DNA of 64,000 bases, from contig NC_134026.1 of assembly GCF_964204645.1 (NCBI RefSeq), positions 18,634,150-18,698,149 on the forward strand. The letters run 5' to 3'. Below are positions 22,433 through 61,427 of this stretch, in pieces. This stretch comes from Tubulanus polymorphus (Eukaryota > Animalia > Nemertea). The notes beneath the pieces were generated by a model. The model saw only the letters and a program-made list of their open reading frames with translations, was not told the DNA's origin and did not search any database. Position 1 is the first letter of the stretch, and each line of letters begins with the position of its first letter. A program made the translations under genes and the position numbers.

Positions 22433-22448
22433 TTATATAACTAAAAAA

Positions 22449-23923: not shown

Positions 23924-23942
23924 TTATATAGTGAAAAAATTA

Positions 23943-24697: not shown

Positions 24698-24714
24698 TTA
24701 TTTTACATATTTTC

Positions 24715-25068
24715 TTATTCGAAATCTATTTCATGGTGCCCCTTTTCATTCTTACCTTTGTATACGAAATAGAAATCACCAGAACATTATTCTTCTAAAT
24801 TTTCACTTGATAATCTATGAAATCTATCTGGTAAATATGTTCTGAATTTATATGTATTTCCTTTTAATCCTTCATATTCTAAGTGTATAACTAATTTATC
24901 TCCATATTTGTTAGTAACTGTAACAATATCTGTAATTAGATATTTCTTATGGATTGTTAATTCTTATAACTTCTTAAATTTATAATCTACTGATTTGACA
25001 TTTGAAGTATCTTTTATTCTATCTAGAAATAATTTGTTGTTCTCACTGTTTGCTTGTTTACTCTCCAT
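24715..25068 (-). pseudogene. P1 small protein downstream of PolB (possible OB-fold ssDNA-binding protein); one stop
   Basis: Ortholog of intact 56711-57064. Confidence 0.6.
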
Positions 25069-25097
25069 TTTAATAACATATTTTTATTAAAATTTGA

Positions 25098-28000
25098 TTA
25101 ACACGTTAGAATTCTTTTCATAATCTCATGCTCTTTTGTTTCTTCTCTTTTGAACTTTAGATATTCATCTAAATTGCAACCATATGCAACTGTATGAATT
25201 CCGTCATCTAAAATATATCTTTTATCATCAAATGGATTCAAACTAACCTTTTCAATTTCTTCAATAAACATTTCATGATCTTCTGATCTTAAACATTTCA
25301 TCTTATGTTTTCTAACTTCTTCATTGAATATACAATTGATGTAATCTTTGAAATGAATATTCTTTTCTACCACACTTTTGGTTATTCCATTCAATTTCTT
25401 TGATTCATGAGTTTTAGTTTTATATGAATACATTTTGGATCTAATACCAATGAATTCAATCATTTCTTCACCACCTAATTCATCTTTGAATTTACCGGGT
25501 CGCTTTTTATTATCATTGCTAAACAATTAATGATCTTTAGGATAATTACTGAAATCAAAATGATGTTTTAATGTTTTTAAATCATCAGTTATGTTATTAG
25601 TTTTTATCTTTAATATGTAACTGTCAGTATCAAAATATAAGATTTCTATATGTTTTTCTCCAAAATGAGGTTGTAATACATTATAATAGAATTCATACAT
25701 TAATAACTTTGATAATTCTAAAACTGAAGCACCAACATAAATTGGTTTATTAAATTCCATAGATGTTCTTCTCATTTTAACTGCAGCTAAATTTTCATCA
25801 AATATTCTGTTACCTATAAATTTAGGATATGTTTGTAAATGCCTTATCCTTTTGCCATTACTAACTAACTCAATATCATTTCTATTTCTAATATTTTCAC
25901 AAGTCTTACCATAGAATGCATTATTCATTAACTTGAAGAAATCTTTCTCAAAATCAGTTTTAGCTTCAGTTCTCTGTTTGGTGTTAAAATCTATATATTT
26001 TTCTAACCACTTAGATTGACTAAATGAAATATATCTATGTACTTTTTTTTTAGGATCATTCCTTGTTTTAGATATAACTTTAACATTCTATAATGTACTA
26101 CATAATTATATTAACTTCCTGAGTTACCATTAACTTTTCTGTATGAATATGATTTTCGGGTTTAATTCTTTTTTGATAATTTGATAATTCTTCATGTGTT
26201 ACAGTTTTATGTTCGGGGCAGTATGCTAGATTTCTAGATTTAAATTCAATATGTTCAGGATATTCTAAATCTACAACAAAGAAGTAACCAGTATCTGAAT
26301 CATCTGCAATATCTAGGATTCTTTTCTTCCAATCAAATTTATCATTATTTTCATGTTGTAAAACTTCACTTATTTCAAATACTCCATAAGGTTGTGGTTC
26401 CATCATTGCCCAACGATACAAATTATTTGCATCTATATATAATAACTTATATCCAGGGTTATCATTTACATTGAAATATCTATCACCTAATACACCTGAA
26501 ACTCCTCCTCTTATAGATTTTTCAAATAATAATAATTGATCTATATTTGTTAACAAGTCCATTTTTATATCTGTAAATTTTAATCCACAATCCCATGTTA
26601 AACCTGGACTAGAATAACAATGACATGGATCAATATTAAAATATTTTAGGTTTACATCTCTAAACCTTTCAAATATATCCGATAATAATAATACATCTGA
26701 TTTTAAATATAAATCTACCAATTGTCCATGATTTTTCATTTTGAAATGATTCCAAATATTCAATGTTCTATTATATACTTCATCTTTAACATATTCATTT
26801 TTTAATTCATCATAGAATTGTTCTTTCAATAATTCAGTTATATTAAAATCATTATGATTTTTATAGAAAGAATATGGAATTGCGCCTTTATATCTCATTA
26901 ATTGAAAATCATCATTATTTGGATAGTGTTGTTTTAATATTTTTAATTCATCATCAACTAATGATTTTGATAAGTTATCTAATGAACTATTTAAAAATCT
27001 ATATGAATCTATAAATCTTAGACACCCAAATTGGAATGATATATAATTCTCAGATGTTCTAGCTAACATTTTAAATTTATAAGTTGGTATTTTATCTTTT
27101 GATCTATTTGAATTTAATCTTTCTATTTCATTATTAATTTCTTCTATTTTATGACATAACTGTTTGATAAATAAATGTGCATAAATTCTGATAGATTATG
27201 AAATATAACTGGTACAAAGTTAATTTTCTTAGCTTGTAAATTGCAATTCTCATGCGCAGCGCCTCTAAACTTTCCGTTCAAATGATCATGGTCTCTTACT
27301 TTTTTATCTTTATAATTAAATATCTTTTCACAATAATAACATTTACCTGCAAACACAAATTCTTCTTTATATTCTTCTGTCATTATAATTTCTATATTTG
27401 TATTCAATAATTTGCTAAATCTTATTTCATGTTCAATTAATAAGTCACAAAAATGATTGATAACATTTTCATTTCTATAATGATAATATTCACTTTCAAT
27501 TAGTTCTGGATAATCAGATTTTATATATAACCCGAAAGCAGCAGCTGATTGATGAATCTTTTTAATTGTATTTGTTATTGGTGGTTCTTCTGAAAAATCA
27601 TTTTCATTAGAATTTAATTTCTTTCTTTTATAATATATTTCTTTTCTATCTTGATCAGTTAATTCTTTATTTAATGATTCAAAATCTCCATATATTACAA
27701 ATGGTACTTTATTTTTGTAATCATATTTTTTGAATTCTAATATTTTATCTTTTTCATTTGGTAAAACTAATTTACAATAATCATGATTTTCACATAATTG
27801 TTTATGATTTAATAATGTACTTTCATTTCTGAATCTATGTAAACATTTTCTACAAAGATATATTTTATGGTGATCATTTTCTGATTTCAAAAATAAATCG
27901 ATTTGTTTAATCCACATATAATGATTTTCATAATATAGTATATCTATAACATCATTTGAATCATAATCTTTTGATAGGTATAAAGGTTCTAATGTATAAT

Positions 28001-29129
28001 GTTTTATATTGTTGCCTTTTGTTTTTGGTAATTTGATTAAATCAAATATATTTATTCTTAAATTATTATCTCTTTCTATTTTTGGGATATTTTTAATTGT
28101 AACAGGATACTTATCTATCTTATAATTATTTTCAAATGGTTTATAATGAGTTAATCTACAAATATTATCAGTTGCAGGATGTAAGCAACTAATTATTGCC
28201 CATAGAAAACATTTATCATCAAAATTTTGTACATTTATAACAGCATTAGTTTTAAATGGTAATTTGATATAACTCGATGCTTCAATATCTGGTTCTTTAT
28301 AATATGATACATTATTTTCATCAATTGGTTTTGATTTAGTTAACTTATTATATTTTGTGTTATAAACATGTAAAGTCATAAATATTATTTCATCAAATAT
28401 TAAACCAGATCCTTCAAAATATTTCTCTTCTATTTTAGTTTTTACTTCATTATAACATTTATCTAATTTATCATCTATATGTTGTTTAGATATAATATGT
28501 TGTGAATGAGAATTTATATTATATATTGGTTTATCTTCAGATTTTATAAACTTTACTTTAGAAGATATACTAATTTTAGGGTATTCAACATCAGTTATTA
28601 TTTTTATAATATTTTTCATATTTTCTACATGTTTTTTATTTTCTTCTAATGTTTTTCCTTTATGAAATTTGAACTCAATAGCTGCTGGACCAATATCACT
28701 TTTAAATGCTTCGGTTATCTCTATATCTTTTTTATTATCTAATGAATTAATATAATTTCTTACATCTTCCATGTATGGTCTTTTATTGTTTAATTTATTT
28801 CTTATTCTTTTAATTGTCTTATGTTTCTTATCATTGTCATTATCAAAATAATTTTCACCTAAAATATCATTATTCATATTTCTAATATGACTTTTAGATT
28901 TTAAATGTTCATTACAATATCTTTTATCACTGAATGATTGATTACATGTATCACATTTATATATTTCTTTTTCATTCTTTAATTCATCTAATTTAGTTTC
29001 TAATATATCATCTTCATATTCTAATTTCAATATATTCTCTAAATGTGTTTTAGTTTTATTGTGTCTTGCTTTTTGGGATTTATCTAGATTGATTTTACAT
29101 GTTGAACAGTAGTACTTATTTGCTTCCAT
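25098..29129 (-). pseudogene. P1 protein-primed family B DNA polymerase, full length and intein-free, with several frameshifts and stops
   Basis: N-terminal C2H2 fingers; Cys/His OTU-like motifs (DDKCFLWA..ENHY); Exo I GDFES; endonuclease-VII-like DHDH..RGAAH..CN; FHNL; YLKSDV; motif A YIDANNLY; motif B NNAFYGK; motif C YFDTDS (empty intein site 25628|25629). Confidence 0.95.
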
Positions 29130-29185
29130 TTTAATACTAAATTTTTTTTTTAAATTGATTTGACACATTTTATTCATTTATATTT

Positions 29186-29708
29186 TATTCATTTATATGT
29201 TATTCATATATATATATATATGAATTATTTCAATCACACTTACTAACACTTTTAATGTTTAAAAATCTAACTCATACAAATATAAATATTGAAATAATGT
29301 TTAAAATATATCTATATATCTATTTATAAGTGAGCTCGTTAATTACTCGTTACTTTTTTACTAACGCTTTTATATTGAATAATCTATCAATTTATATGTT
29401 ATTCATATATATTTAATCATGTATATAAATATTTTAAGAGTAATAGGGGTAATGGGCTTTCAGGTTAAAGGTTGAAAGGGTGAGTGAGTAAAAAATGAAA
29501 AAATATGAAAATAATAATAATTTCTATTTGGATTAGGAGTGAAACTCATAAAAAATGAAAAATAAATTCGAGGGTGCGAGAATTATTTTTCATTTTTTAT
29601 GAGTTTCACTCCTAATTCAAATAGAAATTATTGTTATTTTCATATTTTTCATTTTTTATTAGCTCGACCTTTCGACCTTCGATCTGAAAGCCCATTACCC
29701 TTATTACT
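29186..29708 (-). repeat. P1 right TIR; the outer 29439-29708 is a ~270-bp imperfect palindrome
   Basis: AGTAATAGGGGTAATGGGCTTTCAG at 29439 pairs with CTGAAAGCCCATTACCCTTATTACT ending at 29708; apex near 29575. Confidence 0.92.
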
Positions 29709-44900: not shown

Positions 44901-44909
44901 GCAATGGTC

Positions 44910-45340
44910 AGTAATAGGGGTAAATGGCTTTCAGGCCAAAGGTCGAAGGGTCGAGCTCGTAAAAAAAATGAAAATAACAATAATTTACAGTTGAATTAGT
45001 CGCGCGCACTCCTAATTCAACTGTAAATTATTGTTATTTTCATTTTTTACTCACTCGCCCCCTCAACCTTTAACCTGAAAGGCCATTACCCCTATTACTC
45101 TTAAAATATTCATATACATGGATAAAATATTTATGAATAACATATAAATTGATAGATTATTCAATATAAAAGTGTGAGTAAAGTGTGAGCTCTTATAGAA
45201 TAGATATATAGATATATTTTAAACATTATTTCAATATTTATATTTGTATGAGTTAGATTTTTAAACATTAAAAGTGTTTGTAAAGTGTGATTGAAATAAT
45301 TCATATTTAAATCATTGAACTTCTAAAATCAATTTAGTAA
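44910..45340 (+). repeat. P2 left TIR; the outer 44910-45099 is a 190-bp imperfect palindrome
   Basis: Terminal motif recurs inverted, ending at 45099; apex near 45003. Pairs with 61183-61427. Confidence 0.9.
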
Positions 45341-45357
45341 AACAATTTGATATTAAA

Positions 45358-46011
45358 ATGAAACCAGAACAACCACAAACTATCAATATTACAAATAACA
45401 CTGGTGCCATAAATAAATACTACAAGAAGTGTTCTAAATGTGAATTAGATAAACCATTTACAGAATTTAATAAGCGTAAGATTAGCAAAGATAGTTTTCA
45501 ATATTGTTGTAAAACTTGCACTAAACTATATACCAAACAATATCGAGAAGATAATAGAGAAGCTTATAATGATTATATGACAGAATATATGAGAGAAAGA
45601 TATCAAACAGAGCTTAATTTTTGATTGAAACAATGCTTAAGATCTAGATTAACACAATTATTCAACAAAGAAACACATTCAGAAACATTATCTAATTTGT
45701 TGGGTTGTACAGAATCATGGATTATATTTCAATTCGACGATAAAATGAACATAGATAATTATGGGGATTATTACCATATTGATCATGTGTTACCAATATC
45801 GAAATTTGATATGAATGATGAATACAATCAAAAGCTAATCTGGAATTGGAAAAACCTGAGACCTCTTGAAAAGAAGGAAAATATTAGGAAAGGAAATGAA
45901 CTAGATTTACAGTTATATTTAGAACAGTTAACAAAGGCAAAGAAATTTATTGAATTATGGAACAATGATCCAAATAATGAACAATACGTTGAATCTTTAA
46001 TGAGTGGTTAA
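45358..46011 (+). pseudogene. P2 Zn-ribbon + HNH endonuclease; stop at 45622-45624
   Basis: HIDHVLP..WKNLRPLEKKENIRKGN. Confidence 0.8.
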
Positions 46012-46234
46012 AGAATAATAGGATTTAAATAAGATATGATAAAAAACAATAACTTCAACTAGCTAGTGAATTCTCTTATATTTTTAATATTTTCTTTTAC
46101 AATTCTTTTCAAAAGAGAATACTTTATATCACAAATAAAAAATACTAAAAAACAATAACTAATACTAAAATTCTTTACCTTTAACTAACAAGTATTAAAA
46201 TATTATATTTTTTTCGCTTTTTTCTCCTATATAA

Positions 46235-46844
46235 ATGTCAAAGAAATCTAATAAGAATAGTATTAATATTGAAAAAAACATTAGATGATTTGGGTATAAG
46301 TGATAATAAAGATACAGTTGTAACTAATTGTGCTCAAGTTAATTGTAATATAGATTATGAATACTATTTATATTGTAAGCATCATCTAGAACTATTGATT
46401 GCTGGAGGGAAATCTAAGGATTTCTTGGGAAAAATAATAACTTTTCAAGAATTAGATTCTATGAAACCAGATAAAGTAATAAAATATTTTAAGATTTATG
46501 AAGAGTCAAGATTAGCCCGAATAAATGATTCTATTTCGGATGGTATTGTCAAATGTTACTCTAAGTTATGTAACCGGTTAATACCAATTGATGATGAAAA
46601 TAAATTATATAGTGATTTGAAAAATGACTATTTAGTTATGACTGAATTACAAAAATGGGTTGGTTACGCTTCATTTCAATTAGGATCGGTTATGACATTT
46701 ATTTCTACTGGTGTCATAACATTTTCGAATATCAAACCTATGGAATATAAATCAGGTAAGAACGAAACAGATGGCGCCGCACGACAACCAAACGGCGAAA
46801 CAGAAAATGAATCAGAACAAAAATTAACTAAAATAAATGAGTGA
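46235..46844 (+). pseudogene. P2 hypothetical protein; frameshift just after the start
   Basis: Ortholog of 7297-7911. Confidence 0.7.
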
Positions 46845-47205
46845 TGGCGTTAAGAAAAAGGTTAGATCTGAGAAACAAATTAAATGGGCAAGAGAATTAG
46901 GTAAAAGATCTGCAGAATTAAAAAAAGCTAAGAAAAAGAAATTAACTGAAATAAATGAGTCACAGACTTTATCTGATATTGATTCAAATAATAATCCATC
47001 TAATGCTTCTAATGCTGGAAGTAATAATTACTTATATATTACAATTGGATTAGTAACAGTTATTATATTATCCGGTGTAATATATAAATCAAAATTCAAA
47101 TCTGATGAAAAAGATGATTCCAATGATAATAAACCTATTATACCAGAAAATAAGCCAAATAATAAAGTCATTGAAACTAAATCTAAATTATCATTAATGG
47201 ATTAA
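46837..47205 (+). CDS. Small basic single-pass membrane protein
   Basis: Intact ORF, ortholog of 7904-8272. Confidence 0.75.
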   Translation: MSDGVKKKVRSEKQIKWARELGKRSAELKKAKKKKLTEINESQTLSDIDSNNNPSNASNAGSNNYLYITIGLVTVIILSGVIYKSKFKSDEKDDSNDNKPIIPENKPNNKVIETKSKLSLMD

Positions 47206-47211
47206 AATAAG

Positions 47212-48300
47212 ATGAAAAAAGAACAATATTTAAGAGATTTATATTATAACCCAGAAAGTGAAGTATCATATTCTAACGTTTCAGAATTATGGGATAAAAT
47301 TAAATCTGATAATGAAAATATAAAATATAGTGAATTAAAATCATGGTTACAAAACCAACCAACATATCAAATCCATAAGAAAATGGATAAAACTTATTTA
47401 ACAAGAAAAGTTATGGTTTCATATATCGATCAACAATGGCAAGCAGATTTAATTGATATGAAGAACTTAGAGGAATACAACAAAGGATATTTCTGGATAT
47501 TAAATGTTATAGATATATTCAGTAGATACGCATGGTCAATTCCAATCAAAAATTAAACTGGAATAGAAGTAACAAATGCTTTTAAATCAATATTTAAAGA
47601 AGCTATTCCAGATAAGATACAATTTGATGAAGGTAAGGATTTTTATAATAAACATTTTTAAAAACTATTATCTGATAACGATGTAGATTATTTTTCAACA
47701 CACTCAGATAAAAAAGCATCTATTATAGAAAGATTTAATAAAACATTGAAAATTAAAATGTGGAAATATTTTACTGCTAATGAAACATATAAATATATCG
47801 ATGAGTCTATAAATATGTTAGATGATTTAGTGAAAGGTTATAATAATTCTAAACATAGTTCTATAAATATGAAACCTATACAAGCTAGAAAAGAAGATAA
47901 TTCAGAAATAGTTTGGAATAATTTATATGGTGCGTTTGTTACATATGATTTTGGTGAACCTAAATTAAAAATAGGACAACACGTTAGAATATCTAAATAT
48001 AGAAAAACATTTTATAAAGGTTATACCCCTAATTTTACTGAAGAAATATTCAAGATTAAAAAGATAATATTAACTAAACCTTTTGTTTATAAACTAGAAG
48101 ATCTAAAAGATGAAGAAATATTAGGTTATTTCTATGAACAAGAATTATCACTTGCCCCAAATCCAGATGAAACAGAATACAAAATAGAAAAAGTATTGAA
48201 AACAAAAACTCTTAAAGGAAAAAAGTATTCTTTGGTGAAATATAAAGGGTATGATGATAAATTTAATGAATGGATTTATCTAGTAAAATTAAAAGAATAA
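47212..48300 (+). pseudogene. P2 DDE integrase + chromodomain; stop at 47554-47556 and a frameshift near 47660
   Basis: WQADLIDM; C-terminal YKIEKVL..LVKYKGY..KFNEWI chromodomain. Confidence 0.9.
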
Positions 48301-48912
48301 ATGAATAAAGATTTATTTATATTTGAACCGCATAATATGTTAGTTACTGGAGTAACCAATTGTGGTAAAACACATTTCATATTAGATTTGTTAGAAACTA
48401 TATATAAGAATCATTTTGATTATATAATATTATTTTGTCCTACTTATGAAATGAATAAAACATATAATAGAGATATAGTTAAGATGAAAAAGTTTATTAC
48501 ATTAAATCCTAAAACAGTAAAAGAAAATTTAGATAATTGTATTAAAATAGCAATTGATACTTATAAAGGATTAAATACATTATTCATTACAGATGATTGC
48601 GCAAATTTACATGATTCAAAAGTGAGAGAAAGTGAGTTATGTTATCTGGCTTTCTCTGGGAGACATTTTGGGATAACAACATGGGTTTTAAATCAAAAAT
48701 ATAATTCAATTGTTAAAGACTTTAGGGAGAATATAAGATTTCTAGTTTTATTTTATAACAAAGATAGAAAATCTATGCAACAATCATTGGAAGAAAATCA
48801 AATTATACCTACTGAGTTACATGATGAATATATGAATAAATCAAAGAATAATAAAGGTTCAAAATTATTACTGAGGCTTCAATTTCCATATGAATATAAA
48901 TTTATAAAATAA
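48301..48912 (+). CDS. A32/FtsK-like DNA packaging ATPase (intact)
   Basis: Walker A GVTNCGKT, Walker B FITDD, GRHFG..Q. Confidence 0.9.
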   Translation: MNKDLFIFEPHNMLVTGVTNCGKTHFILDLLETIYKNHFDYIILFCPTYEMNKTYNRDIVKMKKFITLNPKTVKENLDNCIKIAIDTYKGLNTLFITDDCANLHDSKVRESELCYLAFSGRHFGITTWVLNQKYNSIVKDFRENIRFLVLFYNKDRKSMQQSLEENQIIPTELHDEYMNKSKNNKGSKLLLRLQFPYEYKFIK

Positions 48913-49300
48913 GATATTTTAAGTATTTATGTATTAGGTATGTATTAGGTATGTATTAGGTATGTATTAGGTATGTATTAGGTATGTTTTAGATACGCAT
49001 TAGATACCTTAATACTTAAAACCCCCTTTTTTAAAATAAATATTATTTATACAATTTTCAACCAATTTATTTTTATTTTTTCAACTAATATATGAATAAA
49101 TTAAAGAATAATAAAGGTTCAAAATTATTACTGAGGCTTCAATTTCCATATGAATATAAGTTTATGAAATAAGATATTTTATGTATTAGATTGTATTAGA
49201 TTGTATTAGAATGTATTAGATATGTATTAGATACGTATTAATGCCTTAAATACTTAAAACCCCTTTTTTTATTTACTATTATTTTATACAATTTTCATCC
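48829..49300. repeat. ~260-bp tandem duplication of the ATPase 3' end and spacer, containing an 11-bp tandem repeat
   Basis: 49089-49180 repeats 48829-48920; (TATGTATTAGG)x5 at 48928-48982 with a degenerate version at ~49180-49240. Confidence 0.85.
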
Positions 49301-49307
49301 AATATTA

Positions 49308-50222
49308 TTATTTGAGATAAAAATCACTATCTGAATCACTTTCATAAGGCCCTAACAATTTATTCAAATGCTCTACCGAATCTTCTTCTTCAAATTCTTC
49401 ATTATAATCCTTTTTCATCCTATTTACCGAATCATCAATAGTTACTACTTTATCTTTCGTAAAAAATGTATCCACATTTTCTTTATTATCAATACGCTTT
49501 CCTGTAACTATATTTTCATATAGAGTGTTTGCTCCTAATATTTCATTTACAATGTTTGATCCTAATATTTTTTTAGCAGCAGATAAATCTAATTTACCAT
49601 TACTAGGTTCCTTAGATAAAAATTCACCTAATAAATCTTCATATAATTCTTTACCATTTACTTTTTTATTTGAAACAAACTTTGTAACATATTTAAATGG
49701 GTGTTCTATAAATTCCCTTATACCAACACGTTTTATTACATTAGTCATATGTACATTTGTATTCATATGATTATTCCAATTTGATGGAAAGTTTGAAAAT
49801 TCACCATTACAGTAATCACAATAATTTCTATTTTCACTAATATTTAATATTATTTCATTATTTGATGTAGAAGGTAAAACATTATTTGATGTAGAAGGTA
49901 TTACATTATTTGATGTAGAAGGTATGACATTATTTGATGTAGAAGGTATTACATTATTAGATGTAGAAGGTATTACATTATTAGATGTAGAAGGTAAAAC
50001 ATTATTTGATGTAGAAGGAATATTATCTATAATATCATTAATATTATCTTTTTTATTTATATCATTATAACGCTCAATTAAATATTCTTTGTATTGATTT
50101 AATTCATTTAATAAAAATGTTCCAATATATTCATTTATTCTTTTATAAGGTATTACATAATATAAATTATCATTGATTTCTTTATCAGCTTTTATTCTTT
50201 CATATACTTTACCTCCTTCCAT
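49308..50222 (-). CDS. P2 variable-slot protein with 7 x 8-aa PSTSNNV(I/L) repeats and one C2H2 finger
   Basis: Intact ORF; 24-bp tandem repeat at ~49858-50020; CDYC..H.NTNVH finger. Confidence 0.8.
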   Translation of the reverse strand: MEGGKVYERIKADKEINDNLYYVIPYKRINEYIGTFLLNELNQYKEYLIERYNDINKKDNINDIIDNIPSTSNNVLPSTSNNVIPSTSNNVIPSTSNNVIPSTSNNVIPSTSNNVLPSTSNNEIILNISENRNYCDYCNGEFSNFPSNWNNHMNTNVHMTNVIKRVGIREFIEHPFKYVTKFVSNKKVNGKELYEDLLGEFLSKEPSNGKLDLSAAKKILGSNIVNEILGANTLYENIVTGKRIDNKENVDTFFTKDKVVTIDDSVNRMKKDYNEEFEEEDSVEHLNKLLGPYESDSDSDFYLK

Positions 50223-50254
50223 TTATTATATAAATTTTTATTAAAGTTAAAATT

Positions 50255-51505
50255 TTAATACATAACACTATTTAATTGAGAATTTACAATATTTAATTGT
50301 GCGTCAGATATAATATAAATATGCATTTTGAAATTTTTGTCTCCTCTTTTCTTTGTCATGAATAATTGTATTCCATCTTTAGTGTTCTGTAGTTTTTTTC
50401 CAGAACCATGCAATGAATAATCCTCTGTTGTTCTAAAATCTAACCATAATGCATATTTATTACCGGTATAATAATCAATTTGATTAATATTACAATTTTC
50501 AGATGATTTCACTTTTTCATTCATAAAATGTTTTCTAATTTCTGGCCATTGATCTATCATTCTCATTCCTTGACAAAATATTTTATTTGCTATTCCTTCG
50601 ATAGTTATTTCTACTTTTGTTATTTCAGGATTATAATAATTATCAACATTTATTGCGCCATTAGAATATGTTGCAATGGTAAAAAATATTAATATACCTT
50701 TAATAGATCTTCTTGGGAAGTTAATATTCTCATTAATAATTTCATCATTTGCATTAATAGTTACAGTTTTAAATTTATCAATATAATCATATAATAATGA
50801 AAATCCTTGATTGTATTGAGTTTGAATTATACTTGAAATATTTTCATCAGTTACTGTATCATATTCTAAACATATATTCGATAATTTATAACCCATATCT
50901 TTAACAACGCTAGAGTATACAATTTCATTTGCAGGAGCAAATGTTATTTCTAATATAACATCTTCTTGAATTGCGTATTTATATAAAGGTGCATTATTAT
51001 TTATCAATTCAAAGTCTAATGGAATTTTATATTTGCTTCCATATATACTTTTTATCAATTTATCTACAGCATAAGTTAATATTGCATTATGTGCTTCTGA
51101 TCTTAATTTATTTTGGTTTTCTGATTGGATTCCTTGAAATATCATATTATTTCTATTTTCTTTAGTTAACCATAAATCTTTATAATGCATAAATAAATTA
51201 TAATCATCTAATGAGAAAACTGTTTCTGGTCCAATCTTTATAGTTAATTTTTTAATCAAATATCTTCCAACATTATCGACAACATAATTATTATTATTAT
51301 TACCAGTTACTTTTATATTAGCTGATAAATAAATACTATTTGGAACATAAAAAGTATTTTGTGTTAACCGAGGGATTCTAACATATAAAGTTTCATCGGG
51401 ATTAATATGAGAAGGGTTATGAGTAATTATATGATGTGATCTTTCTGCTTTAATAGCATTAGATATTCTAGAATTCTGAGAAGGATTTATGTAACTCCCA
51501 CTCAT
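50255..51505 (-). CDS. Putative major capsid protein (double jelly-roll), intact, 416 aa
   Basis: Size, beta-strand pattern, very high conservation between P1 and P2, and co-occurrence with ATPase and penton. Fold not computed. Confidence 0.78.
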   Translation of the reverse strand: MSGSYINPSQNSRISNAIKAERSHHIITHNPSHINPDETLYVRIPRLTQNTFYVPNSIYLSANIKVTGNNNNNYVVDNVGRYLIKKLTIKIGPETVFSLDDYNLFMHYKDLWLTKENRNNMIFQGIQSENQNKLRSEAHNAILTYAVDKLIKSIYGSKYKIPLDFELINNNAPLYKYAIQEDVILEITFAPANEIVYSSVVKDMGYKLSNICLEYDTVTDENISSIIQTQYNQGFSLLYDYIDKFKTVTINANDEIINENINFPRRSIKGILIFFTIATYSNGAINVDNYYNPEITKVEITIEGIANKIFCQGMRMIDQWPEIRKHFMNEKVKSSENCNINQIDYYTGNKYALWLDFRTTEDYSLHGSGKKLQNTKDGIQLFMTKKRGDKNFKMHIYIISDAQLNIVNSQLNSVMY

Positions 51506-51525
51506 TTATTTAACAAAAAAAATAA

Positions 51526-53107
51526 TTATTCATTTTTGATTATGTTTACTAACCCAAAAATAATAGCACTTACAACTGTAATTAAAAATAAAATGATATG
51601 TTCAGCAGCAAAGTTAAGAATATTACCTGCAGATTTCAATATAAAACCAACAATTGATGCAATAATTCCTGGTAAAGCTGCAGCAGATTTTTTAGATAGT
51701 TCCCATACATATTTTGCTAATTTTTTTGAACCATCTTTAACTTTATCTTGTATTGAATTATTATCTGGGGGTTTATCCGGTTTATTGGGAGTAGGAGTAG
51801 ATTTCAAAGAATTTGATATAGCTAAACCAATTGTTGTAAATACCATAGTTACAGATGTTACAATTGAAAGAATTGTTATACCTTCTAACTTAAATAATAA
51901 TCTTATTCTATCTTTTAATGATATTTTAGAATCTGGTTTAATTATTAAATCTTTAAAAATAACTTTTAATTTTTTAATATGATTAAGATCATATGATTTT
52001 AATGATATATCTCTTTCTTTTTCCTGTAATTCTTTGTTATATTTTAAATCATCTATTTATTTTTCTAAAGCTAACTTTCTGCTTTCATAATCAGCTTCGT
52101 CTATTACTTGAAGATCTCTATTTAATTCTAATTGTTTTAATTCTTCATTTGCATTAGTTAAAATCTTTTTCTAACATGGTTATTTTAGAAAATCTCATCT
52201 TAATATTAGCAATTTCACCAGCTGATTCTTGCATACCTTTAATTTCTCTACGTGCTTGTTCAGGAAATGCTTCTAATTCATCATCAGTTAAATCAAGTAA
52301 TCCTTTTTCTAGTAAAGATTGTATTCGATTTATTCCAGTTTCAGTACCGGGTGTATCTAAAATACTATTCATATCTTCGTCAAATGAATGAACTGTATCA
52401 AACATTTTATCATAATGTTTCACTAATTCTAATTGATTTGAATCATTATCAATTGGTTGAGTGTCTCTTCTCGATGTTTCTGGTGTTGAAGATCTTAATT
52501 TATCTAATCGTTCTCCATACTCTTCCATTTCTTGATGGTTTCAAATAAGTAATTAATTCTTTTTTTAAATGCTCTTTCATATTCATTAATTTCTCCTTGT
52601 GTTACATTTTCTATTTCATTATTAATACTTATTTTTTTAATTCTAGATGGGTCTAACTTAAACAAAGTTGATTTTGTTAATATTTTGCTTTGTTTTTTAT
52701 AAGAGATATCAATATAATAATCTTTTCCCAAATGATAATCTTTTTTTAAATGATAATAATATTCACCATTTTAAATTTTGTACTAAAAGTCTGACGCCTC
52801 TATCATTTAAATTATATCCAGAATTTTTAAATATATGTTTTAATTTATACATTTGGTTTGTATATTCTAAATCTTGTCTTTCTAAATCTGGATTTAAATT
52901 TTCAGATTTTATTCTAGATTTAGTTCTTCTATCATATTCCTCTGTTGATGGGGCTTTAGTACCACTATCTGTTAAATTAGAATTATATGCTGATTCATCA
53001 TCATTATCAATATTAGTTTCTTCATCATTATAATCAGGTTGTGGTTCTTCAGATGTGCAGGGTTCACTAAAAGTACCCATTTCATAATCTTCTCCACCTT
53101 CTTCCAT
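51526..53107 (-). pseudogene. Acidic/coiled-coil/multi-TM protein, fragmented
   Basis: ORFs 52763-53107, 52504-52731, 52154-52528 and 51526-51846; ortholog 19671-21110. Confidence 0.7.
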
Positions 53108-53129
53108 TTACATAATAAAAAAATTAAAA

Positions 53130-54419
53130 TTAAAAATATAATATTCCTCCGATTACAATTCCTATACAAGTTAAAGCTAATTTAGCATTTTCATGGGATT
53201 TATTATCATTATCAGTTTTAATTATATCATGTTGAATATTATCAGTTTTAATATTTTCTGATGTATTGTAATCTCTTATTTTAGAATCATTATTTAATTT
53301 AATATTATTAGTTTTAGTTTCTGTTGATTGAATATGTTTTTTATTTTTTTCACCTTCCATTAATTTTGGAGCAGTGATAACCTTTTTATTTATATCATTC
53401 AATCCAAATGAATTATTTATTGTTGCAGTTTTAATTAGATTATTATAACCAATTATGTTTCCCATCTTTAATACTAAATCATTAGAAATAATGAATAGAT
53501 TAGGGCCTATACAATAATTTAATCTAATATGTGATTTATCTAAATAATTTTGATATCTTACTATGTTTTCTGGAATCGATCTATTTTTATCATTATGAAT
53601 GGAATCTTCAAAAAATACTTTAAATTGTTTCTGCGCATCGAATGAAGTGTTATCATTTCCAATTATTGGGGATCTTGTTTCAACTTGCGCACCTAAAATA
53701 CATATCAAATAAGTTCTAATAGATTGATTTATTCTTTGTATACCTGATTTTGTAAAACCTTCACTATTTTCTAAAATGAAATTAATCCAACCATTATTAT
53801 TATCAATTTTATAATTATGATAAGATCCAATTCTATGCAAATAATCAATTCTTTTTATTTCATACTCTTCACCAACACCTTGCAATTTACCATGCGCTCT
53901 AAAATTGGAATTAATATTTATATTAAATTCATTACATATTTTATAAAACTTAGATAGATAAATATTATCGTCCAATTCTTTAAAATATTTAGATCCAGGA
54001 CATTCTAATTCATTTAATATTATTCCGATTTGAAAATATGTGTGAAATCTAAATATTGTGTGAATTAATTTTAAATCAGAATATTTCAAATTTTTATCTA
54101 AGTTATTTTAATGATCATTCAGACTTATACCACAACCAGTTGTTGCACAATAAACAGCAAAATTTACTTGGTTCTGCCAATATTTCATATTAGATTTTAC
54201 TTTATATATATGATATTCATCTCGAGTAAAAGTAACTTCATATGTATTAAATATATTTTCCATTTTAGAAATAAAAAACTGTGATTCAGTAACATAAATT
54301 TCTAAATTAGTTAATGAATTTAAAACTAAATTTTTATATGTAATATTTTTTTTTTAATCTATTGCAGGAATATTATATTTAATTGATTTATTATATTGGA
54401 AAGCTTTTGGAAACCCCAT
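53130..54419 (-). pseudogene. Conserved protein with CATTGCG motif and C-terminal TM anchor; N-terminal part disrupted
   Basis: ORF 53130-54089 plus upstream frame to the ATG at 54419; ortholog 21127-22432. Confidence 0.75.
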
Positions 54420-54435
54420 TTATATAATTAAACAA

Positions 54436-54870
54436 TTAATAATTAACTAATTCTTTTAATAATTTATCTTGTTCTTCAACTGTAATATGACCATTTAAAC
54501 TTATTATATAATCTAGTGTATTCTTTAATTTATTAATTTCTTTTATATTAGTTTTAATTTTTTCTTTATTACTTTTTATATTCAATTTTGAACTTATACC
54601 AGTTAAAACACTTGATGATAATCCTAACACACCAATTGATATAGCTAAAGGTGTTAATGGTGAAAATATTGCTAAAAATGTTATTACAGAACTAATTGTA
54701 ACCGAACCACTGATAATAAGATAATATATAATTTTACTTTTTAAATATTTTTTCTTTTTAACTTTTAAATCATTTTCAAATTCTAATATTTGTGTTTCTA
54801 AATATATTTTTAATTTAGTTTTATTTATATCATGAGGAATAATATCAATATTATCAACTTTATCATCCAT
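54436..54870 (-). CDS. Coiled-coil / two-TM hairpin / coiled-coil membrane protein
   Basis: Intact ORF with a ~45-aa hydrophobic core. Confidence 0.75.
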   Translation of the reverse strand: MDDKVDNIDIIPHDINKTKLKIYLETQILEFENDLKVKKKKYLKSKIIYYLIISGSVTISSVITFLAIFSPLTPLAISIGVLGLSSSVLTGISSKLNIKSNKEKIKTNIKEINKLKNTLDYIISLNGHITVEEQDKLLKELVNY

Positions 54871-54889
54871 TTATTTAACAAAAAAATTA

Positions 54890-55312
54890 CTAATTAGTAA
54901 ATCTATACGCTACAAATATAACAATAACTGTTTCCCCTAAAATCCAAATTATTTCATATTTCTGTTGTTCTTTACTTGGGGTATAATAATCTGATATTGT
55001 AGGTTTATGTAGATGTAATTTTTCTTTATTGGTTACCGCGTTATATAAACTCATTGCATCATCAACTGATTGAAAATCTCTATGAGAAATCTTCTGATTA
55101 TATAATTCCTTGTTAATATAATCCATATAGTTTTGTCTTTTTTCTCTATATTCTTCTGCTGCTTTATTGTATTTCTCTAACGCTAAGTTATGTCTTTTTT
55201 GTTCTGTTAATGATCCATTTTTATCAATTTGCTTAAATAAATATCCACCACCAGTAAATGCTAAAGCGTTAACAATTGCCGATCCTATAATAGTTATAAC
55301 TACAGAAGCCAT
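54890..55312 (-). CDS. Small protein with hydrophobic N- and C-termini
   Basis: Intact ORF (IIGSAIVNALAFTGGGYLF ... IIWILGETVIVIFVAY); conserved in P1. Confidence 0.75.
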   Translation of the reverse strand: MASVVITIIGSAIVNALAFTGGGYLFKQIDKNGSLTEQKRHNLALEKYNKAAEEYREKRQNYMDYINKELYNQKISHRDFQSVDDAMSLYNAVTNKEKLHLHKPTISDYYTPSKEQQKYEIIWILGETVIVIFVAYRFTN

Positions 55313-55336
55313 TTATTTAGTAAAATAATTACGCAT

Positions 55337-55558
55337 TTATATAGGAGGAATATATTTCTGTTTTTCCAAATAATCAATAGTTAAATTAGATAAAGTAACT
55401 GCTAATGTTAATTTTAAAATATCATTTATATCAAATCTATCAACATTAACACTTCCCATTTTAAATACTTTTTTTAATACCATTGAATAACCAACAGTTC
55501 CAACTGATAGTAAGGCTCCATTATATAAACCAGTTATTATCCACTTATTATCACTCAT
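55337..55558 (-). CDS. 73-aa hydrophobic protein
   Basis: Intact ORF, conserved in P1 at 23345-23565. Confidence 0.7.
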   Translation of the reverse strand: MSDNKWIITGLYNGALLSVGTVGYSMVLKKVFKMGSVNVDRFDINDILKLTLAVTLSNLTIDYLEKQKYIPPI

Positions 55559-55655
55559 TCATTTATCAAAAAAATCACCATCTTCAAAATATTTAGTTAT
55601 TTTAGTGATGATTAATTCAACATTTATAGTATTATTAGTTTCATTTGTATATATT

Positions 55656-55916
55656 TCAATTATTATTTTTTTTAATATCATCGATGATAAAATCTTCATC
55701 TAATTCATAAAATCTTAAAGATTCTCTAATTAAATTTGTAATCTTTTCTTCATTTAAAGTTTCTTTATATATTGTTGTTTCATACTCAAATGTTGTTTCA
55801 TTAGAAAATGCAATATCTTTAATATGTGTTAATACATCAGTAATGTTAAATTTCATTTCTTTCTCACGTTTAAAATCAAATCCAAAACATATACTCGGTC
55901 CAACAGTTATATTCAT
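55656..55916 (-). CDS. Hypothetical protein (possibly truncated by a frameshift)
   Basis: Ortholog of 23723-23923. Confidence 0.6.
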   Translation of the reverse strand: MNITVGPSICFGFDFKREKEMKFNITDVLTHIKDIAFSNETTFEYETTIYKETLNEEKITNLIRESLRFYELDEDFIIDDIKKNNN

Positions 55917-55935
55917 TTATATAATGAAAAAATTA

Positions 55936-56693
55936 CTATTTACATCTTATAACTAATTCATAAATTACAGGAAAGTTATTCAAATCAATTAAATATCCAT
56001 TATGATTTCTTATTTCTAATTTAAAATTATTAAATTGAGGAATACAAGGTTTAAAATCACATTCAGCTAAATTATAATTTATTTGCGTTCCAAATTGTTT
56101 AACATTCTTCAATGGTAAAATATTTAATATACTAGAATTACATGTTGTATCTTTAGTTGCTTCAAATGTTTTTGTATGATCAATTAAATTGCAATAAATA
56201 TAAAAGTGTGTAAAAGGTATTATATTTGAAATGCCTTCTACGTTTCCTGTAACAACATCTGGTGCAATTCCTAGCAATTTAGCTAATGGTTTTTTTACTA
56301 TGAATACATTTCATGACTTTCATCAAATACCTTTATTTTAATTTTATTTGTGCTATCACTTTTTATAAATCTAATTAAAAATTTATCATCTTTTCTAATT
56401 TTCAACCGTGCTCTTCGATTGATTTCTTGAGATAATGTTTCTAAATTATATAATCCTGGTTTTGAAATTAGATGAAACCATTTATTTACATTTCTAATAT
56501 GAATTAAAAAAGTATTATGTTCAATAGTTTTATTCGATATATTGTAAAAAGAATTACATAAACTTATATTAACTAATTTTAAATCAACCCAATTTTTATA
56601 TTCCCTATCTAATTGAACTAATAAATTATGTGATTTATAATTTGTAAGTCTTCTTGAATCAACAAATATTCTATATTCTTTTAATTCTACCAT
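55936..56693 (-). pseudogene. P2 putative minor capsid (penton) protein, split near 56295
   Basis: ORFs 56298-56693 and 55936-56277; NSFYNI, PGLYN, YIYCNLI and IRNHNGYLIDLNN. Confidence 0.72.
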
Positions 56694-56710
56694 TTATTTT
56701 ACATATTTTC

Positions 56711-57064
56711 TTATTCGAAATCTATTTCATGGTGCCCTTTTTCATTCTTACCCTTATATACGAAATAGAAATCACCTGAACATAATTCTTCTAGATGTTC
56801 ACTTGATAATCTATGAAATCTATCTGGTAAATATGTTCTGAATTTATTTGTATTTTCTTTTAATCCTTCATATTCTAAGTGAATAACTAATTTATCTCCA
56901 TATTTGTTAGTAACTGTAACAATATCTGTAATTAGATATTTCTTATGGATTGTTAATTCTTTTAACTTCTTAAATTTATAATCTACTGATTTGACATTTG
57001 AAGTATCTTTTATTCTATCTAGAAATAATTTGTTGTTCTCACTGTGTGCTTGTTTACTCTCCAT
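56711..57064 (-). CDS. Small protein downstream of PolB, possible OB-fold ssDNA-binding protein
   Basis: Intact 117-aa ORF with TNKYG..LVIHL and YLPDRF; function inferred from beta pattern and position. Confidence 0.55.
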   Translation of the reverse strand: MESKQAHSENNKLFLDRIKDTSNVKSVDYKFKKLKELTIHKKYLITDIVTVTNKYGDKLVIHLEYEGLKENTNKFRTYLPDRFHRLSSEHLEELCSGDFYFVYKGKNEKGHHEIDFE

Positions 57065-58343
57065 TTTAATAACATATTTTTATTAAAATTTGATTAACAC
57101 GTTAGAATTCTTTTCATTATCTCGTTCTCTTTTGTTTCTTCTCTTTTAAATTTTAAGTATTCATCTAAATTGCAACCATATGCAACTGTATGAATTCCAT
57201 CATCTAAAATATATCTTTTATCATCAAATGGGTTTAGACTTATCTTTTCAATTTCTTCAATAAACATTTCATGATCTTCAGATCTTAAACATTTCATCTT
57301 ATGTTTTCTAACTTCTTCATTGAATATACAATTGATGTAATCTTTGAAATGAATATTCTTTTCTACTACACTTTTGGTAATTCCTTTTAACTTTTTAGCT
57401 TCATGTTCTTTAGTTTTATATGAATACATTTTAGATCTAATACCAATGAATTCAATCATTTCTTCACCACCTAATTCATCCTTAAACTTCCCGGGTCGCT
57501 TTTTATTATCATTGCTAAACAATTCATGATTTTTAGGATAGTTACTAAAATCAAAATGATGTTTTAATGTTTTTAAATCATCAGTTATGTTATTAGTTTT
57601 TATCTTAAATATGTAACTGTCAGTATTTTTTATGATTGATGGAAATCCACGATTAAATGTACCATCTTCAGTTGTTAAATCATAAACATATTCTGTAGGA
57701 TTCGATATTTCAAATAAATCTCTAGCTTCTTTAGTTAGTTCATTTTCTACATGCGTTAATTGCTTAAATTTATAATCTACTGATTTGACATTTGAAGTAT
57801 CTTTTATTCTATCTAGAAATAATTTGTTGTTCTCACTGTGTGCTTGTTTACTCTCCATTTTAATAACATATTTTTATTAAAATTTGATTAACACGTTAGA
57901 ATTCTTTTCATTATCTCGTTCTCTTTTGTTTCTTCTCTTTTAAATTTTAAGTATTCATCTAAATTGCAACCATATGCAACTGTATGAATTCCATCATCTA
58001 AAATATATCTTTTATCATCAAATGGGTTTAGACTTATCTTTTCAATTTCTTCAATAAACATTTCATGATCTTCAGGTCGCTTTTTATTATCATTGCTAAA
58101 CAATTCATGATTTTTAGGATAGTTACTAAAATCAAAATGATGTTTTAATGTTTTTAAATCATCAGTTATGTTATTAGTTTTTATCTTAAATATGTAACTG
58201 TCAGTATTTTTTATGATTGATGGAAATCCACGATTAAATGTACCATCTTCAGTTGTTAAATCATAAACATATTCTGTAGGATTCGATATTTCAAATAAAT
58301 CTCTAGCTTCTTTAGTTAGTTCATTTTCTACATGCGTTAATTG
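56969..58343. repeat. Tandem duplication: unit 1 56969-57762 (794 bp), unit 2 57763-58343 (581 bp, in-frame 213-bp deletion)
   Basis: Junction ATGCGTTAATTG|CTTAAATTTATAATC at 57762/57763. Unit 2 lacks 71 PolB codons (GKFKDE...KCLRS). Confidence 0.92.
57094..57858 (-). CDS. Chimeric ORF: 32-aa leader from the neighbouring gene + intein C-terminal ~46 aa + complete PolB C-extein
   Basis: MESKQ...DYKFK|QLTHVEN...YVYDLTTEDGTF...IIKN|TDSY...; open and in frame. Confidence 0.75.
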   Translation of the reverse strand: MESKQAHSENNKLFLDRIKDTSNVKSVDYKFKQLTHVENELTKEARDLFEISNPTEYVYDLTTEDGTFNRGFPSIIKNTDSYIFKIKTNNITDDLKTLKHHFDFSNYPKNHELFSNDNKKRPGKFKDELGGEEMIEFIGIRSKMYSYKTKEHEAKKLKGITKSVVEKNIHFKDYINCIFNEEVRKHKMKCLRSEDHEMFIEEIEKISLNPFDDKRYILDDGIHTVAYGCNLDEYLKFKREETKENEIMKRILTC

Positions 58344-61184
58344 AAATACATTTAGTTTATCTTTTCTAATATTAACTAACATATTAAATCCTAATGAATT
58401 GCATAATGTATTTAATCCTGATATAGCAACTTTTCCTTTTTGTGTCAAAGATATAGTTTTCTGTTTTGTATAGTTTTTTGAACCATCTGCAGCATAAAAT
58501 CCAATGAAGAACCATTTTCTTAAATCATATTTTGCATTTAATACATAATCTGGAACTATCTTTTCTTTTGTTGAAGTATTACTTTTCACTATTGTATGAA
58601 TATAGAATTCATCATTATATTTAATTGCAAAATCTTTAGGGTTAATTACATGTATTCTATAAACTGCTGATGATTTCATAACATCCATGATTCTAAATGT
58701 TTTATGTGAATAAACTTCTTCACAGTATTTCTTAATTCTTTCTAATAATTTCAAATCTTGATTGCATAAATACCAACAATATTTAGTTCCACTAACATAT
58801 TTATACACACCTGCTGAACCATCACCCATAAAAAATCCTTTGATAAAATATTCTTTTTCTTCCAATGTTTCGGATTCTATATTATAAACATTATCAATTA
58901 TTTTATCAAATGACATATGATTCATTCTTGGGTAAAATCTTTTATGTAATAATTCATCTCCAATTTTTATATCAGTTGGTTTTATTTCATCACCATTTTG
59001 TTTAATTAAACTATGATCTTCAGTAACATCAACAAATCCTAATTTAGTTCTAACTCTATAGATTTTCTTATTCGTTTTATGTCTAATTATATTCTTTAAT
59101 TTTTTCCATCCACTTTTTGTCCAAACATCCATTAATCCATTTATTTGTATTAATTCTTTTTCACCATACGAAATATAAAGTTCATTTTGTTTTGGAATTA
59201 TTTCTGAAATTCTTCTAATTAACATTTAGTTATTGTATTTTAAAAATATTGGTCAGCTGTAACAGAATCAAAATATAAGATTTCTATATGTTTTTCTCCA
59301 AAATGAGGTTTTAATACATTATAATAGAATTCATACATTAATAACTTTGATATTTCTAAAACTGAAGCACCAACATAAATTGGTTTATTAAATTTCATTG
59401 ATGTTCTTCTCATTTTAACTGCGGCTAAATTTTCATCAAATATTCTGTTACCTAAAAACTTAGGATATGATTGTCAATGCCTTATCCTTTTGCCATTACT
59501 TACTAACTCAATATCATTTCTATTTCTAATATTTTCACTAGTCTTACCATAGAATGCATTATTCATTAACTTGAAGAAATCTTTCTCGAAATCAGGGTTA
59601 GCTTCAGTTCTATGTTTGTGTTAAAATCTATATATTTTTCTAACCATTTAGATTGACTAAATGAAATATATCTATGTACTTTTTTTAGAACCATTCCTTG
59701 GTTCAAATAAAACTTCAACATTCTATAATGTACTAACATAATTATATTTATCTTCCTGAGTTACCATTAACTTTTCTGTATGAATATGATTTTCGGGTTT
59801 AATTCTTTTTTGATAATTTGATAATTCTTCATGTGTTACAGTTTTATGTTCGGGACAGTATGCTAGATTTCTAGATTTAAATTTAATATGTTCAGGATAT
59901 TCTAAATCTACAACAAAGAAGTAACCAGTATCTGAATCATCTGCAATATCTAGGATTCTTTTCTTCCAATCAAATTTATCATTATTTTCATGTTGTAAAA
60001 CTTCACTTATTTCAAATACTCCATAAGGTTGTGGTTCCATCATTGCCCAACGATACAAATTATTTGCATCTATATATAATAACTTATATCCAGGGTTATC
60101 ATTTACATTGAAATATCTATCACCTAATACACCTGAAACTCCTCCTCTTATAGATTTTTCAAATAATAATAATTGATCTATATTTGTTAACAAATCCATT
60201 TTTATATCTGTAAATTTTAAACCACAATCCCATGTTAATCCTGGGCTAGAATAACAATGACAAGGATCAATATTGAAATATTTTAGGTTTACATCTCTAA
60301 ACCTTTCGAATATATCCGATAATAATAATACATCTGATTTTAAATATAAATCTACTAATTGTCCATGATTTTTCATTCCAAAATGATTCCAAATATTCAA
60401 TGTTCTATTATATACTTCATCTTTAACATATTCATTTTTTAATTCATCATAGAATTGTTCTTTCAATAATTCAGTTATATTGAAATCATTATGATTTTTA
60501 TAGAAAGAATATGGAATTGCACCTTTATATCTCATTAATTGGAATTCATCATTATTTGTGTAGTATTGTTTTAATATTCTTAATTCATCATCAACTAATG
60601 ATTTTGATAAGTTATCTAATGAACTATTTAAAAATCCATATGAATCTATAAATCTTAGGCAACCAAATTGGAATGATATATAATTCTCAGATGTTCTAGC
60701 TAACATTTTAAATTTATAAGTTGGTATTTTATCTTTTGATCTATTTGAATTTAATCTTTCTATTTCATTATTAATTTCTTCTATTTTATGGCATAACTGT
60801 TTGGATAAATAAATGTGCATCATATCCTGATAGATTATGAAATATAACTGGTACAAAGTTAATTTTCTTAGCTTGTAAATTCAATTCTCATGTGCAGCGC
60901 CTCTAAACTTTCCGTTCAAATGATCATGGTCTCTTACTTTTTTATCTTTATAATTAAATATCTTTTCACAATAATAACATTTATCTGCAAACTCAAATGC
61001 TTCTTTATCTTCTTCTGTCATTATAATTTCTATATTTTCATTTAACTTTTCATTAAATTTTATTTCATATTCAATTAATAAGTCACAAAAATGATTGATA
61101 ACATTTTCATTTCTATAATGATAATATTCACTTTTAATTAGTTCTGGATAATCAGATTTAATATATAATCCAAAAGCTGCAGCT
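57888..61184 (-). pseudogene. P2 protein-primed PolB with intein; 5' ~1.6 kb of coding sequence deleted, frameshifted
   Basis: ORFs 60881-61189, 59723-60856 and 57888-59225 are colinear with P1 PolB apart from the intein insert. Confidence 0.93.
58206..59266 (-). mobile_element. Intein with LAGLIDADG (DOD) homing endonuclease in PolB motif C (YFD^TDS)
   Basis: 1061-bp insert absent from P1. Starts SVTAD; block B VTEDH; blocks C/E GFFMGDGS and GFYAADGS; block F YVYDLTT; ends IIKN followed by Thr+1. Confidence 0.95.
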
Positions 61185-61427
61185 ATCAATTTATATGTTA
61201 TTCATATATATTTTATCCATGTATATGAATATTTTAAGAGTAATAGGGGTAATGGGCTTTCAGGTCAAAGGTTGAGGGGGCGAGTGAGTAAAAAATGAAA
61301 ATAACAATAATTTACAGTTGAATTAGGAGTGTGCGCGACTAATTCAACTGTAAATTATTGTTATTTTCATTTTTTTACGAGCTCGACCCTTCGACCTTTG
61401 GCCTGAAAGCCCATTACCCCTATTACT
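61183..61427 (-). repeat. P2 right TIR (inner part deleted); 61239-61427 is a 189-bp imperfect palindrome
   Basis: Reverse complement of 44910-~45155; joined to PolB sequence through a 2-bp CT microhomology at 61183-61184. Confidence 0.9.

Follow-up and report, generated by a model that had tools for sequence, protein, structure and literature searches.

A TAAATG start-site motif as a candidate helper-read late promoter in Polinton-type elements of Tubulanus polymorphus

Which transcription machinery reads the genes of Polinton-type elements that lie integrated in an animal genome? The question is raised by a stretch of 64,000 nucleotides (nt) from the nemertean Tubulanus polymorphus (NCBI RefSeq assembly GCF_964204645.1, contig NC_134026.1, positions 18,634,150 to 18,698,149 of the forward strand), called here the window, in which all positions below are counted. 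It contains two decayed copies of one Polinton-type element, P1 and P2, amid LINE and BEL/Pao retrotransposons. BEL/Pao elements are metazoan, in keeping with an animal host. An initial annotation had noticed that nearly every gene of these elements starts with TAAATG, the poxvirus late-promoter signature, and had proposed that their structural genes may be transcribed by the RNA polymerase of a helper nucleocytovirus in place of host RNA polymerase II. Directly established here are the word itself, a fixed core upstream of it, its confinement to one or two clades in the capsid tree, and the lack of TATA-like enrichment and of a polymerase motif. TAAATG together with the fixed upstream T is probably a late promoter that the RNA polymerase of a co-infecting nucleocytovirus would read, and the elements are likely integrated satellites.

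Placement of TAAATG in P2 and P1

Since several P2 genes are broken, and since any TAAATG opens an open reading frame (ORF) by construction, the P2 starts were set by homology to relatives. All eleven P2 sites first reported as TAAATG do read so, at the positions and on the strands reported. The predicted enrichment over shuffled sequence is barely visible for the bare hexamer, with 135 occurrences across the window against 109.9 +/- 11.8 expected and 4 of 100 shuffles reaching 135. At the homology-defined P2 starts it is strong: TAA precedes ATG in 11/15, compared with 39/692 non-start ATGs (Fisher p 8e-11), 39/478 sites at the first ATG after a stop, which control for ORF-caller bias (p 4e-9), and a share of 13.3% TAA among all-A/T triplets (binomial 1.8e-7). 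It is the placement of TAAATG, not its bare abundance, that carries the signal. Most P1 orthologs match as well, with TAAATG at 13 of 14 scored starts; this count omits the integrase start (TAAGATG) and the ATPase start, which is not recognisable.

Four P2 starts deviate, namely 45358 and 57064 (both TAAAATG), 47212 (TAAGATG) and 55558 (TAAATGAATG). The initial annotation had already given TAAAATG for the P2 HNH gene and for a 117-aa gene, and TAAGATG for the integrase. It had also assigned TAAAATG to P1 PolB, whose first in-frame ATG (29177) in fact reads TAAATG, the TAAAATG lying three codons further on. The label SSB once given to the 117-aa gene finds no Pfam match. Most cases are, as noted before, not stop-start overlaps: the upstream gene is abutted only at 48301 and overlapped only at 46837. 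Contrary to the proposed limitation to structural genes, TAAATG also starts the ATPase, the HNH nuclease, a nucleoside kinase cargo gene, the integrase of the related loci L001 and L003, and P1 PolB.

Ahead of the word, a T-run had been described with a spacer of about 20 nt. The T-run is present 7-13 nt before TAAAT at 8/11 P2 starts; the 20 nt correspond to the intergenic gap, which measures 16-32 nt in 8/13 co-oriented cases, and not to a spacer. With positions counted upstream from the T of TAAAT, one base stands out, a T at -9, written T(-9) below. It is found at 11/11 P2 starts vs 13/38 non-start TAAATG words, and at 11/13 P1 starts vs 14/37 such words. The features of the two copies are as follows.

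44910..61427, no strand: P2, decayed element of Polinton type; its terminal inverted repeats measure 246 bp (self-match 97% over 246 nt); 21-28% GC
44904..44909 (left, plus strand) and 61428-61433 (right): target-site duplication of P2, ATGGTC, 6 bp, on both flanks
5127..29708, no strand: P1, second decayed copy, target-site duplication GACAAC, 84-97% identity to P2, interrupted by a BEL/Pao retrotransposon
45354..45360, plus strand: HNH-type gene, broken, TAAAATG start (45358); weak HNH match in the relative L001, TAAATG in the P1 ortholog
46223..46237, plus strand: conserved gene of ~210 aa, broken in P2, T(-9) and TAAATG start
46825..46839, plus strand: 122-aa gene, T(-9) and TAAATG start within the end of the upstream gene
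47208..48300, plus strand: RVE integrase with chromodomain, broken, TAAGATG start (47212); the P1 copy matches rve
48289..48912, plus strand: A32-type packaging ATPase (Pox_A32, E 7.6e-13), T(-9) and TAAATG, the TAA doubling as integrase stop
49308..50234, minus strand: 304-aa repeat/zinc-finger gene, TAAATG start at 50222, A-rich core
50255..51517, minus strand: double jelly-roll capsid protein, TAAATG start at 51505; model pLDDT 88.6, best folds PBCV-1 and iridovirus capsids
53105..53119, minus strand: conserved gene of ~480 aa, broken in P2, T-run and TAAATG start
54417..54431, minus strand: conserved gene of ~440 aa, broken in P2, T(-9) and TAAATG start
54868..54882, minus strand: 144-aa two-helix membrane-type gene, T-run and TAAATG start
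55310..55324, minus strand: conserved 140-aa gene, T-run and TAAATG start
55556..55570, minus strand: conserved 73-aa gene, start TAAATGAATG (55558); TAAATG in the P1 ortholog
55914..55928, minus strand: 86-aa ORF, T-run and TAAATG start
56691..56705, minus strand: family-wide gene of ~250 aa, penton candidate, broken in P2, T(-9) and TAAATG start
57062..57076, minus strand: 117-aa gene, TAAAATG start (57064), duplicated at 57858
57888..61182, minus strand: protein-primed PolB, broken, 5' part including the start lost; DNA_pol_B_2, LAGLIDADG_3 and Intein_splicing matches

Distribution and upstream core among related loci

An alignment of capsids led to 83 loci, 68 with a visible capsid start and 15 without a usable one. 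Among the closest loci, 14 have a visible capsid start: 13 of them, L001-L013, read TAA-ATG, and one, L015, reads TAAATGAATG. TAA-ATG likewise begins the capsid gene at 2/2 starts (L060, L061) in a separate group of four loci, and at 0/52 in the remaining loci. In the capsid tree the window clusters with 15 loci (SH-aLRT 99, quick tree), referred to below as the clade, while the four others form a second TAAATG group; a single common origin of the trait is not rejected (approximately unbiased (AU) p 0.26, 18 rows). When all genes with homology-confirmed N-termini are considered, TAAATG is found at 37/44 starts of the clade (14 loci, after removal of two near-duplicates), counts that are not independent because these loci come from seven assemblies and are kin to each other, and at 6/6 starts in the second group. 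Sister loci with the same capsid have it at 0/52 starts (18 AT-rich loci) and 3/268 starts (43 GC-rich loci). A purine at -3 prevails in these sisters (48/52 AT-rich, 192/268 GC-rich) and not in the clade. The motif persists across capsids that are 49-75% identical and across 20-44% GC, including loci of 40-44% GC.

Three side observations concern these loci. The cargo gene of L003 (10340-10981, minus strand) encodes a deoxynucleoside kinase (Pfam dNK 1.7e-31) and carries the full T-run and TAAATG start. Some AT-rich sisters (L029, L030, L046, L082; L065, L067, L058) start their genes at TAAAA(A)TG or TATA-ATG, which may represent further helper-matched promoter types. Certain capsid relatives (P0044 cluster; L081-L083) bear bacterial or archaeal names, likely owing to host-DNA contamination of those assemblies.

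In the clade, the share of T peaks at -9, with 46/48 starts against 77% at -10, a T-run extends from -12 to -7, and A is found at -15 in 79%. When compared with non-start words, T(-9) marks 48/54 clade starts vs 24/82, and in the GC-richer part of the clade 21/25 vs 6/30. In the second four-locus group it is present in 4/8 and not clearly common to it. All four divergent gene pairs of the clade (4/4) have TAAATG on both sides, 24-30 nt apart.

If the word merely followed from AT bias, or from the poly(A) signal of the upstream gene read as AATAAA-TG, this would fit the 21-28% GC of P2 and the 22/54 clade starts that read AATAAATG. This explanation is already largely refuted and is highly improbable: 32/54 starts have no AATAAA, the divergent pairs carry the word, the sisters that are equally AT-rich have 0/52, and the composition-matched controls reject it. 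A translational role, in which the in-frame stop protects the frame or links termination with reinitiation along a polycistronic RNA, also appears very improbable. By construction the TAA shares the frame of the ATG, at 48301 it serves as the integrase stop, and a G follows the ATG in 32/48 clade starts, as such a signal might have it. Yet the stops in front of the starts are TAA 37, TGA 1 and TAG 0, compared with TAA 28, TGA 8 and TAG 5 at gene ends; only 3/54 start TAAs end a stretch upstream that is open for >= 50 codons; the divergent pairs carry TAAATG without any gene upstream; and T(-9) would be left unexplained.

A more serious question is whether the host itself reads the motif, as a compact nuclear promoter used by RNA polymerase II (Pol II), maybe with an element-encoded factor, with a start at the T-A step and a very short leader. 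The minimal Pol II initiator is a pyrimidine-purine step, which the T-A of the word resembles. The family exists in very many copies, its core is no exact match to the sampled large viruses, and several conserved genes have no known function, among them one for a 442-aa protein whose predicted fold is unusable (pLDDT 47). Against a host promoter, the distance between the fixed element and the initiator is 9-15 nt and not the 25-31 nt of a TATA box, and a leader of 2 nt would be poorly scanned. TATA-like boxes at -55 to -26 are enriched in the sisters (32 vs 4 of 236; 25 vs 6 of 50), an enrichment not seen in the clade (10 vs 10 of 43). YAG within 12 nt of the ATG occurs at 91/236 GC-rich sister starts (for example in L019, L025 and L037) vs 3/43 in the clade, where 0/43 starts have an AG ahead of the ATG that could accept a trans-spliced leader. 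The boxes and YAG of the GC-rich sisters would represent host-type promoters or trans-splice acceptors, and such boxes, like the purine at -3, belong to the sisters and not to the clade. Of the host transposon ORFs in the window 0/7 start with TAA-ATG, a weak control since these starts were set mechanically. On the side of a host promoter, other animal polintoviruses are transcribed in host tissue (PMC11131425). Taken together, we regard host transcription of the clade from this motif as unlikely.

The elements, their genes and the PolB intein

The assignment to Polintons/Mavericks follows from terminal inverted repeats with a 6-bp target duplication, from a protein-primed PolB and an RVE integrase (both broken in the window copies and intact in relatives), and from a double jelly-roll capsid with an A32-type ATPase. 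A cysteine protease, a trait of Group 1 Maverick-Polintons, gave no Pfam match among 28 window, 18 clade and 15 sister ORFs, though a divergent protease could escape such a search. The RNA polymerase motif DxDGD is absent from all six frames of P1, P2 and four relatives, and the largest gene of the element without assignment has at most about 485 aa; a multisubunit RNA polymerase of its own, as in the cytoplasmic linear elements of yeast, was not found in this material. The family comprises very many diverged copies in the host, with 17,728 contigs in one run.

Several local rearrangements were observed. The BEL/Pao retrotransposon of P1 sits within the integrase gene (~8480-15260). A 24-nt tandem repeat (49827-50045) encodes the PSTSNNV(I/L) peptide array of the 304-aa gene. 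On the minus strand at 57094-57858 a tandem duplication fuses the beginning of the 117-aa gene with the end of the intein and the PolB C-terminus; it is 99-100% identical to its source, as expected of a recent event or an assembly artefact. The terminal repeats (44910-45099 and 61239-61427, and likewise the P1 ends) each form a fold-back of ~190 nt containing AAAAATGAAAA, which fits the published poxvirus early core. The window has more matches to this early core, AAAANTGAAAA, than expected (12 vs 2.7), 9/12 of them in the terminal fold-backs, far from gene starts and not independent of one another.

The PolB of P2 contains a LAGLIDADG intein in its catalytic motif (about 58204-59266, minus strand), which is absent from P1. 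It is polymorphic in the host, since runs contain joined forms that skip it. At this site inteins also occur in other protein-primed polymerases (46-64%) and, at about 30-46%, in large delta-like polymerases, which hold the next relatives of the intein after those in four other protein-primed polymerases. This pattern suggests past co-residence with large DNA viruses and carries neither a date nor a direction. Relatives of capsid, PolB and intein were not found in the viral collection searched. Comparison of the clade genes with the large-virus loci that were fetched gave no match except one kinase and one short intein match; the kinase search yielded one relative of 37%, which is of no use, and the Atlas returned kinase clusters and unnamed capsid clusters only.

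A probable helper-read late promoter and its meaning

Late promoters of vaccinia are described as a TAAAT(G) that runs into the start codon; a conserved T stands ten nucleotides further upstream, in the company of more Ts (PMC11980589). The core is further placed about 6 nt ahead of the initiator, slippage produces poly(A) leaders, and TAAAAT occurs as the initiator of an intermediate promoter (PMC12722222, PMC5294985, both in part). The annotation of a fish poxvirus, in the section considered, flags TAAATG at many genes (PMC4542343). The window motif has the same overlap with the start codon, the following G, a T-rich core a few bases upstream and a TAAAAT variant; TAAAAT being an intermediate-class initiator, the TAAAATG exceptions match as well. 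Unlike vaccinia, the clade has no early promoter class at its gene starts and the element no transcription genes.

The earlier designation as a poxvirus signature stands for the overlap with the start codon and fails for specificity. A pattern scan of viral contigs, followed by an examination of 79 loci around related capsids, found uncultured iridovirus-related viruses (L088, L204-L222) in which TAAATG starts 40-88% of the ORFs (11/79 loci, two of them duplicates). In L088 6/7 ORFs start this way, and among known structures its capsid comes nearest to that of Singapore grouper iridovirus, as do two further capsids of these loci. In the iridovirus-related contigs TAAATG words also stand back to back in pairs, with a distance of about 24 nt; in a poxvirus-like contig the word is found at 8/18 starts. 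The iridovirus-related contigs differ from the clade in being large viruses without a fixed T(-9), and their promoters are themselves predicted. Because the word extends beyond poxviruses and the core is matched by no sampled group, the initiator is best described as nucleocytovirus-like in general. Iridovirus-related viruses would suit the role of helper no less than poxviruses. The replication of iridoviruses includes a nuclear phase, through which their factors would reach integrated DNA.

Mavirus and the endogenous mavirus-like elements of Cafeteria share the late promoter of their helper, so that this kind of sharing between satellite and helper is already known in protists (PMC8547959, in part). 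They resemble P2 in being integrated, in their set of capsid, ATPase, RVE integrase and protein-primed PolB, and in one motif at gene starts; they differ in the motif (TCTA), a known and tested helper (CroV), a protist host and a virophage-type capsid (same source). The clade motif, in contrast, is fused to the ATG, and its helper is a prediction. Reactivation of mavirus-type elements has been tied to the late motif of the helper in the portions of PMC8547959 and 10.1101/2025.10.09.676808 consulted. Polinton-like viruses associated with entomopoxviruses are likewise animal elements tied to a nucleocytovirus, one of them integrated; there the link is co-isolation and not promoters, and they also code for a cysteine protease, an enzyme not found here (PMC11296320). 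In the main text of that article the terms promoter, motif, transcription and TAAAT have 0 occurrences. The yeast elements pGKL1/2 are also protein-primed, AT-rich linear DNAs with a TAAAN initiator that makes 5' poly(A) leaders, but have their own RNA polymerase, an ATNTGA upstream element and neither capsid nor integrase (PMC6211774, in part). Polinton-3 of Nematostella and animal elements outside the two Maverick groups have a capsid or ATPase that groups with PgVV-type polinton-like viruses (PMC4028283, 10.64898/2026.06.19.733378, each in part). The P2 family, a candidate member of this set, also lacks a detectable protease and has a capsid fold closest to PBCV-1.

The helper-read promoter gains from the bipartite layout, the conservation across the clade, the absence in sisters, the loss of the TATA-like signal and the lack of a polymerase motif. 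We propose that the late polymerase of a helper nucleocytovirus would bind the A/T core and start transcription in AAA. Slippage would add a 5' poly(A) leader in place of the missing 5' untranslated region, and it is presumably this leader that makes an ATG two bases from the transcription start translatable. Integrated copies would stay silent until a helper infects the cell, as proposed by analogy with mavirus-type elements. Capsid, ATPase, integrase and PolB would then be made, and new copies would integrate.

A number of points weigh against this proposal. The conserved T of vaccinia is published at the tenth nucleotide and, by the count used here, stands at the ninth in the clade, one off. 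T(-9) is not fixed in the sampled large viruses, being found at 36% of 69 iridovirus-related starts and 3/8 in the poxvirus-like contig, and the clade matrix scores z 6.9 on P2 as opposed to z <= 2.5 for the sampled large-virus groups unshifted (3.8 as the best of four shifts). The contrast to the sisters is not absolute, as TAAA lies within 8 nt of the start in 26/52 AT-rich sister starts, and the sister lineages are as compact as the clade. In line with the proposal, clade genes show no avoidance of AATAAA (3.1 per kb, observed/expected (O/E) 0.92), but its avoidance in sisters is weak too (O/E 0.83), so the contrast is slight. The kinship of the clade loci reduces the weight of their counts. 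The high copy number in the host implies frequent expression, and coral polintoviruses, of different or unassigned clades, are transcribed in host RNA, no helper being mentioned in the part of PMC11131425 at hand. A depletion of TTTTTNT (O/E 0.38), considered as a poxvirus early terminator signal, was discarded since other homopolymers are equally depleted.

The motif might also be a vestige, the clade descending from a helper-dependent virus while the integrated copies spread or decay without using it. Both window copies are indeed broken and 4/15 P2 starts deviate from TAAATG. On the other hand, the motif is kept over the whole range of capsid identity and GC content given above, and on cargo genes confined to single loci, such as the kinase of L003. 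This retention argues for selection in an active lineage until recently, and we consider a vestige improbable.

Going beyond the helper-read promoter itself, we offer a more tentative picture, possible rather than probable. The clade may consist of provirophages whose helper is a large DNA virus of invertebrates still to be described; its late transcription machinery would activate them, while sisters with the same capsid use host promoters. Polintons would then have changed from autonomous to satellite life or back, each time with all promoters rewired, and in an animal the integrated copies may serve as an inherited defence against giant viruses.

A nucleocytovirus-type late promoter in animal-integrated Polintons was not found in the literature covered, which includes few subscription papers; in three surveys that were searched by term, the word 'promoter' does not occur. 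No Maverick-Polinton virion has been seen so far, as stated in the accessible part of 10.64898/2026.06.19.733378. The promoter bears on how Maverick-Polintons are activated in animals. A promoter that points to a helper tells when to look, namely in animals infected by nucleocytoviruses, and what to look for, namely poly(A)-led transcripts starting from AAA. The motif also offers a sequence test by which animal Polintons could be sorted into host-transcribed and likely helper-dependent clades. Finally, the promoter reading predicts an unknown large virus of Tubulanus polymorphus.

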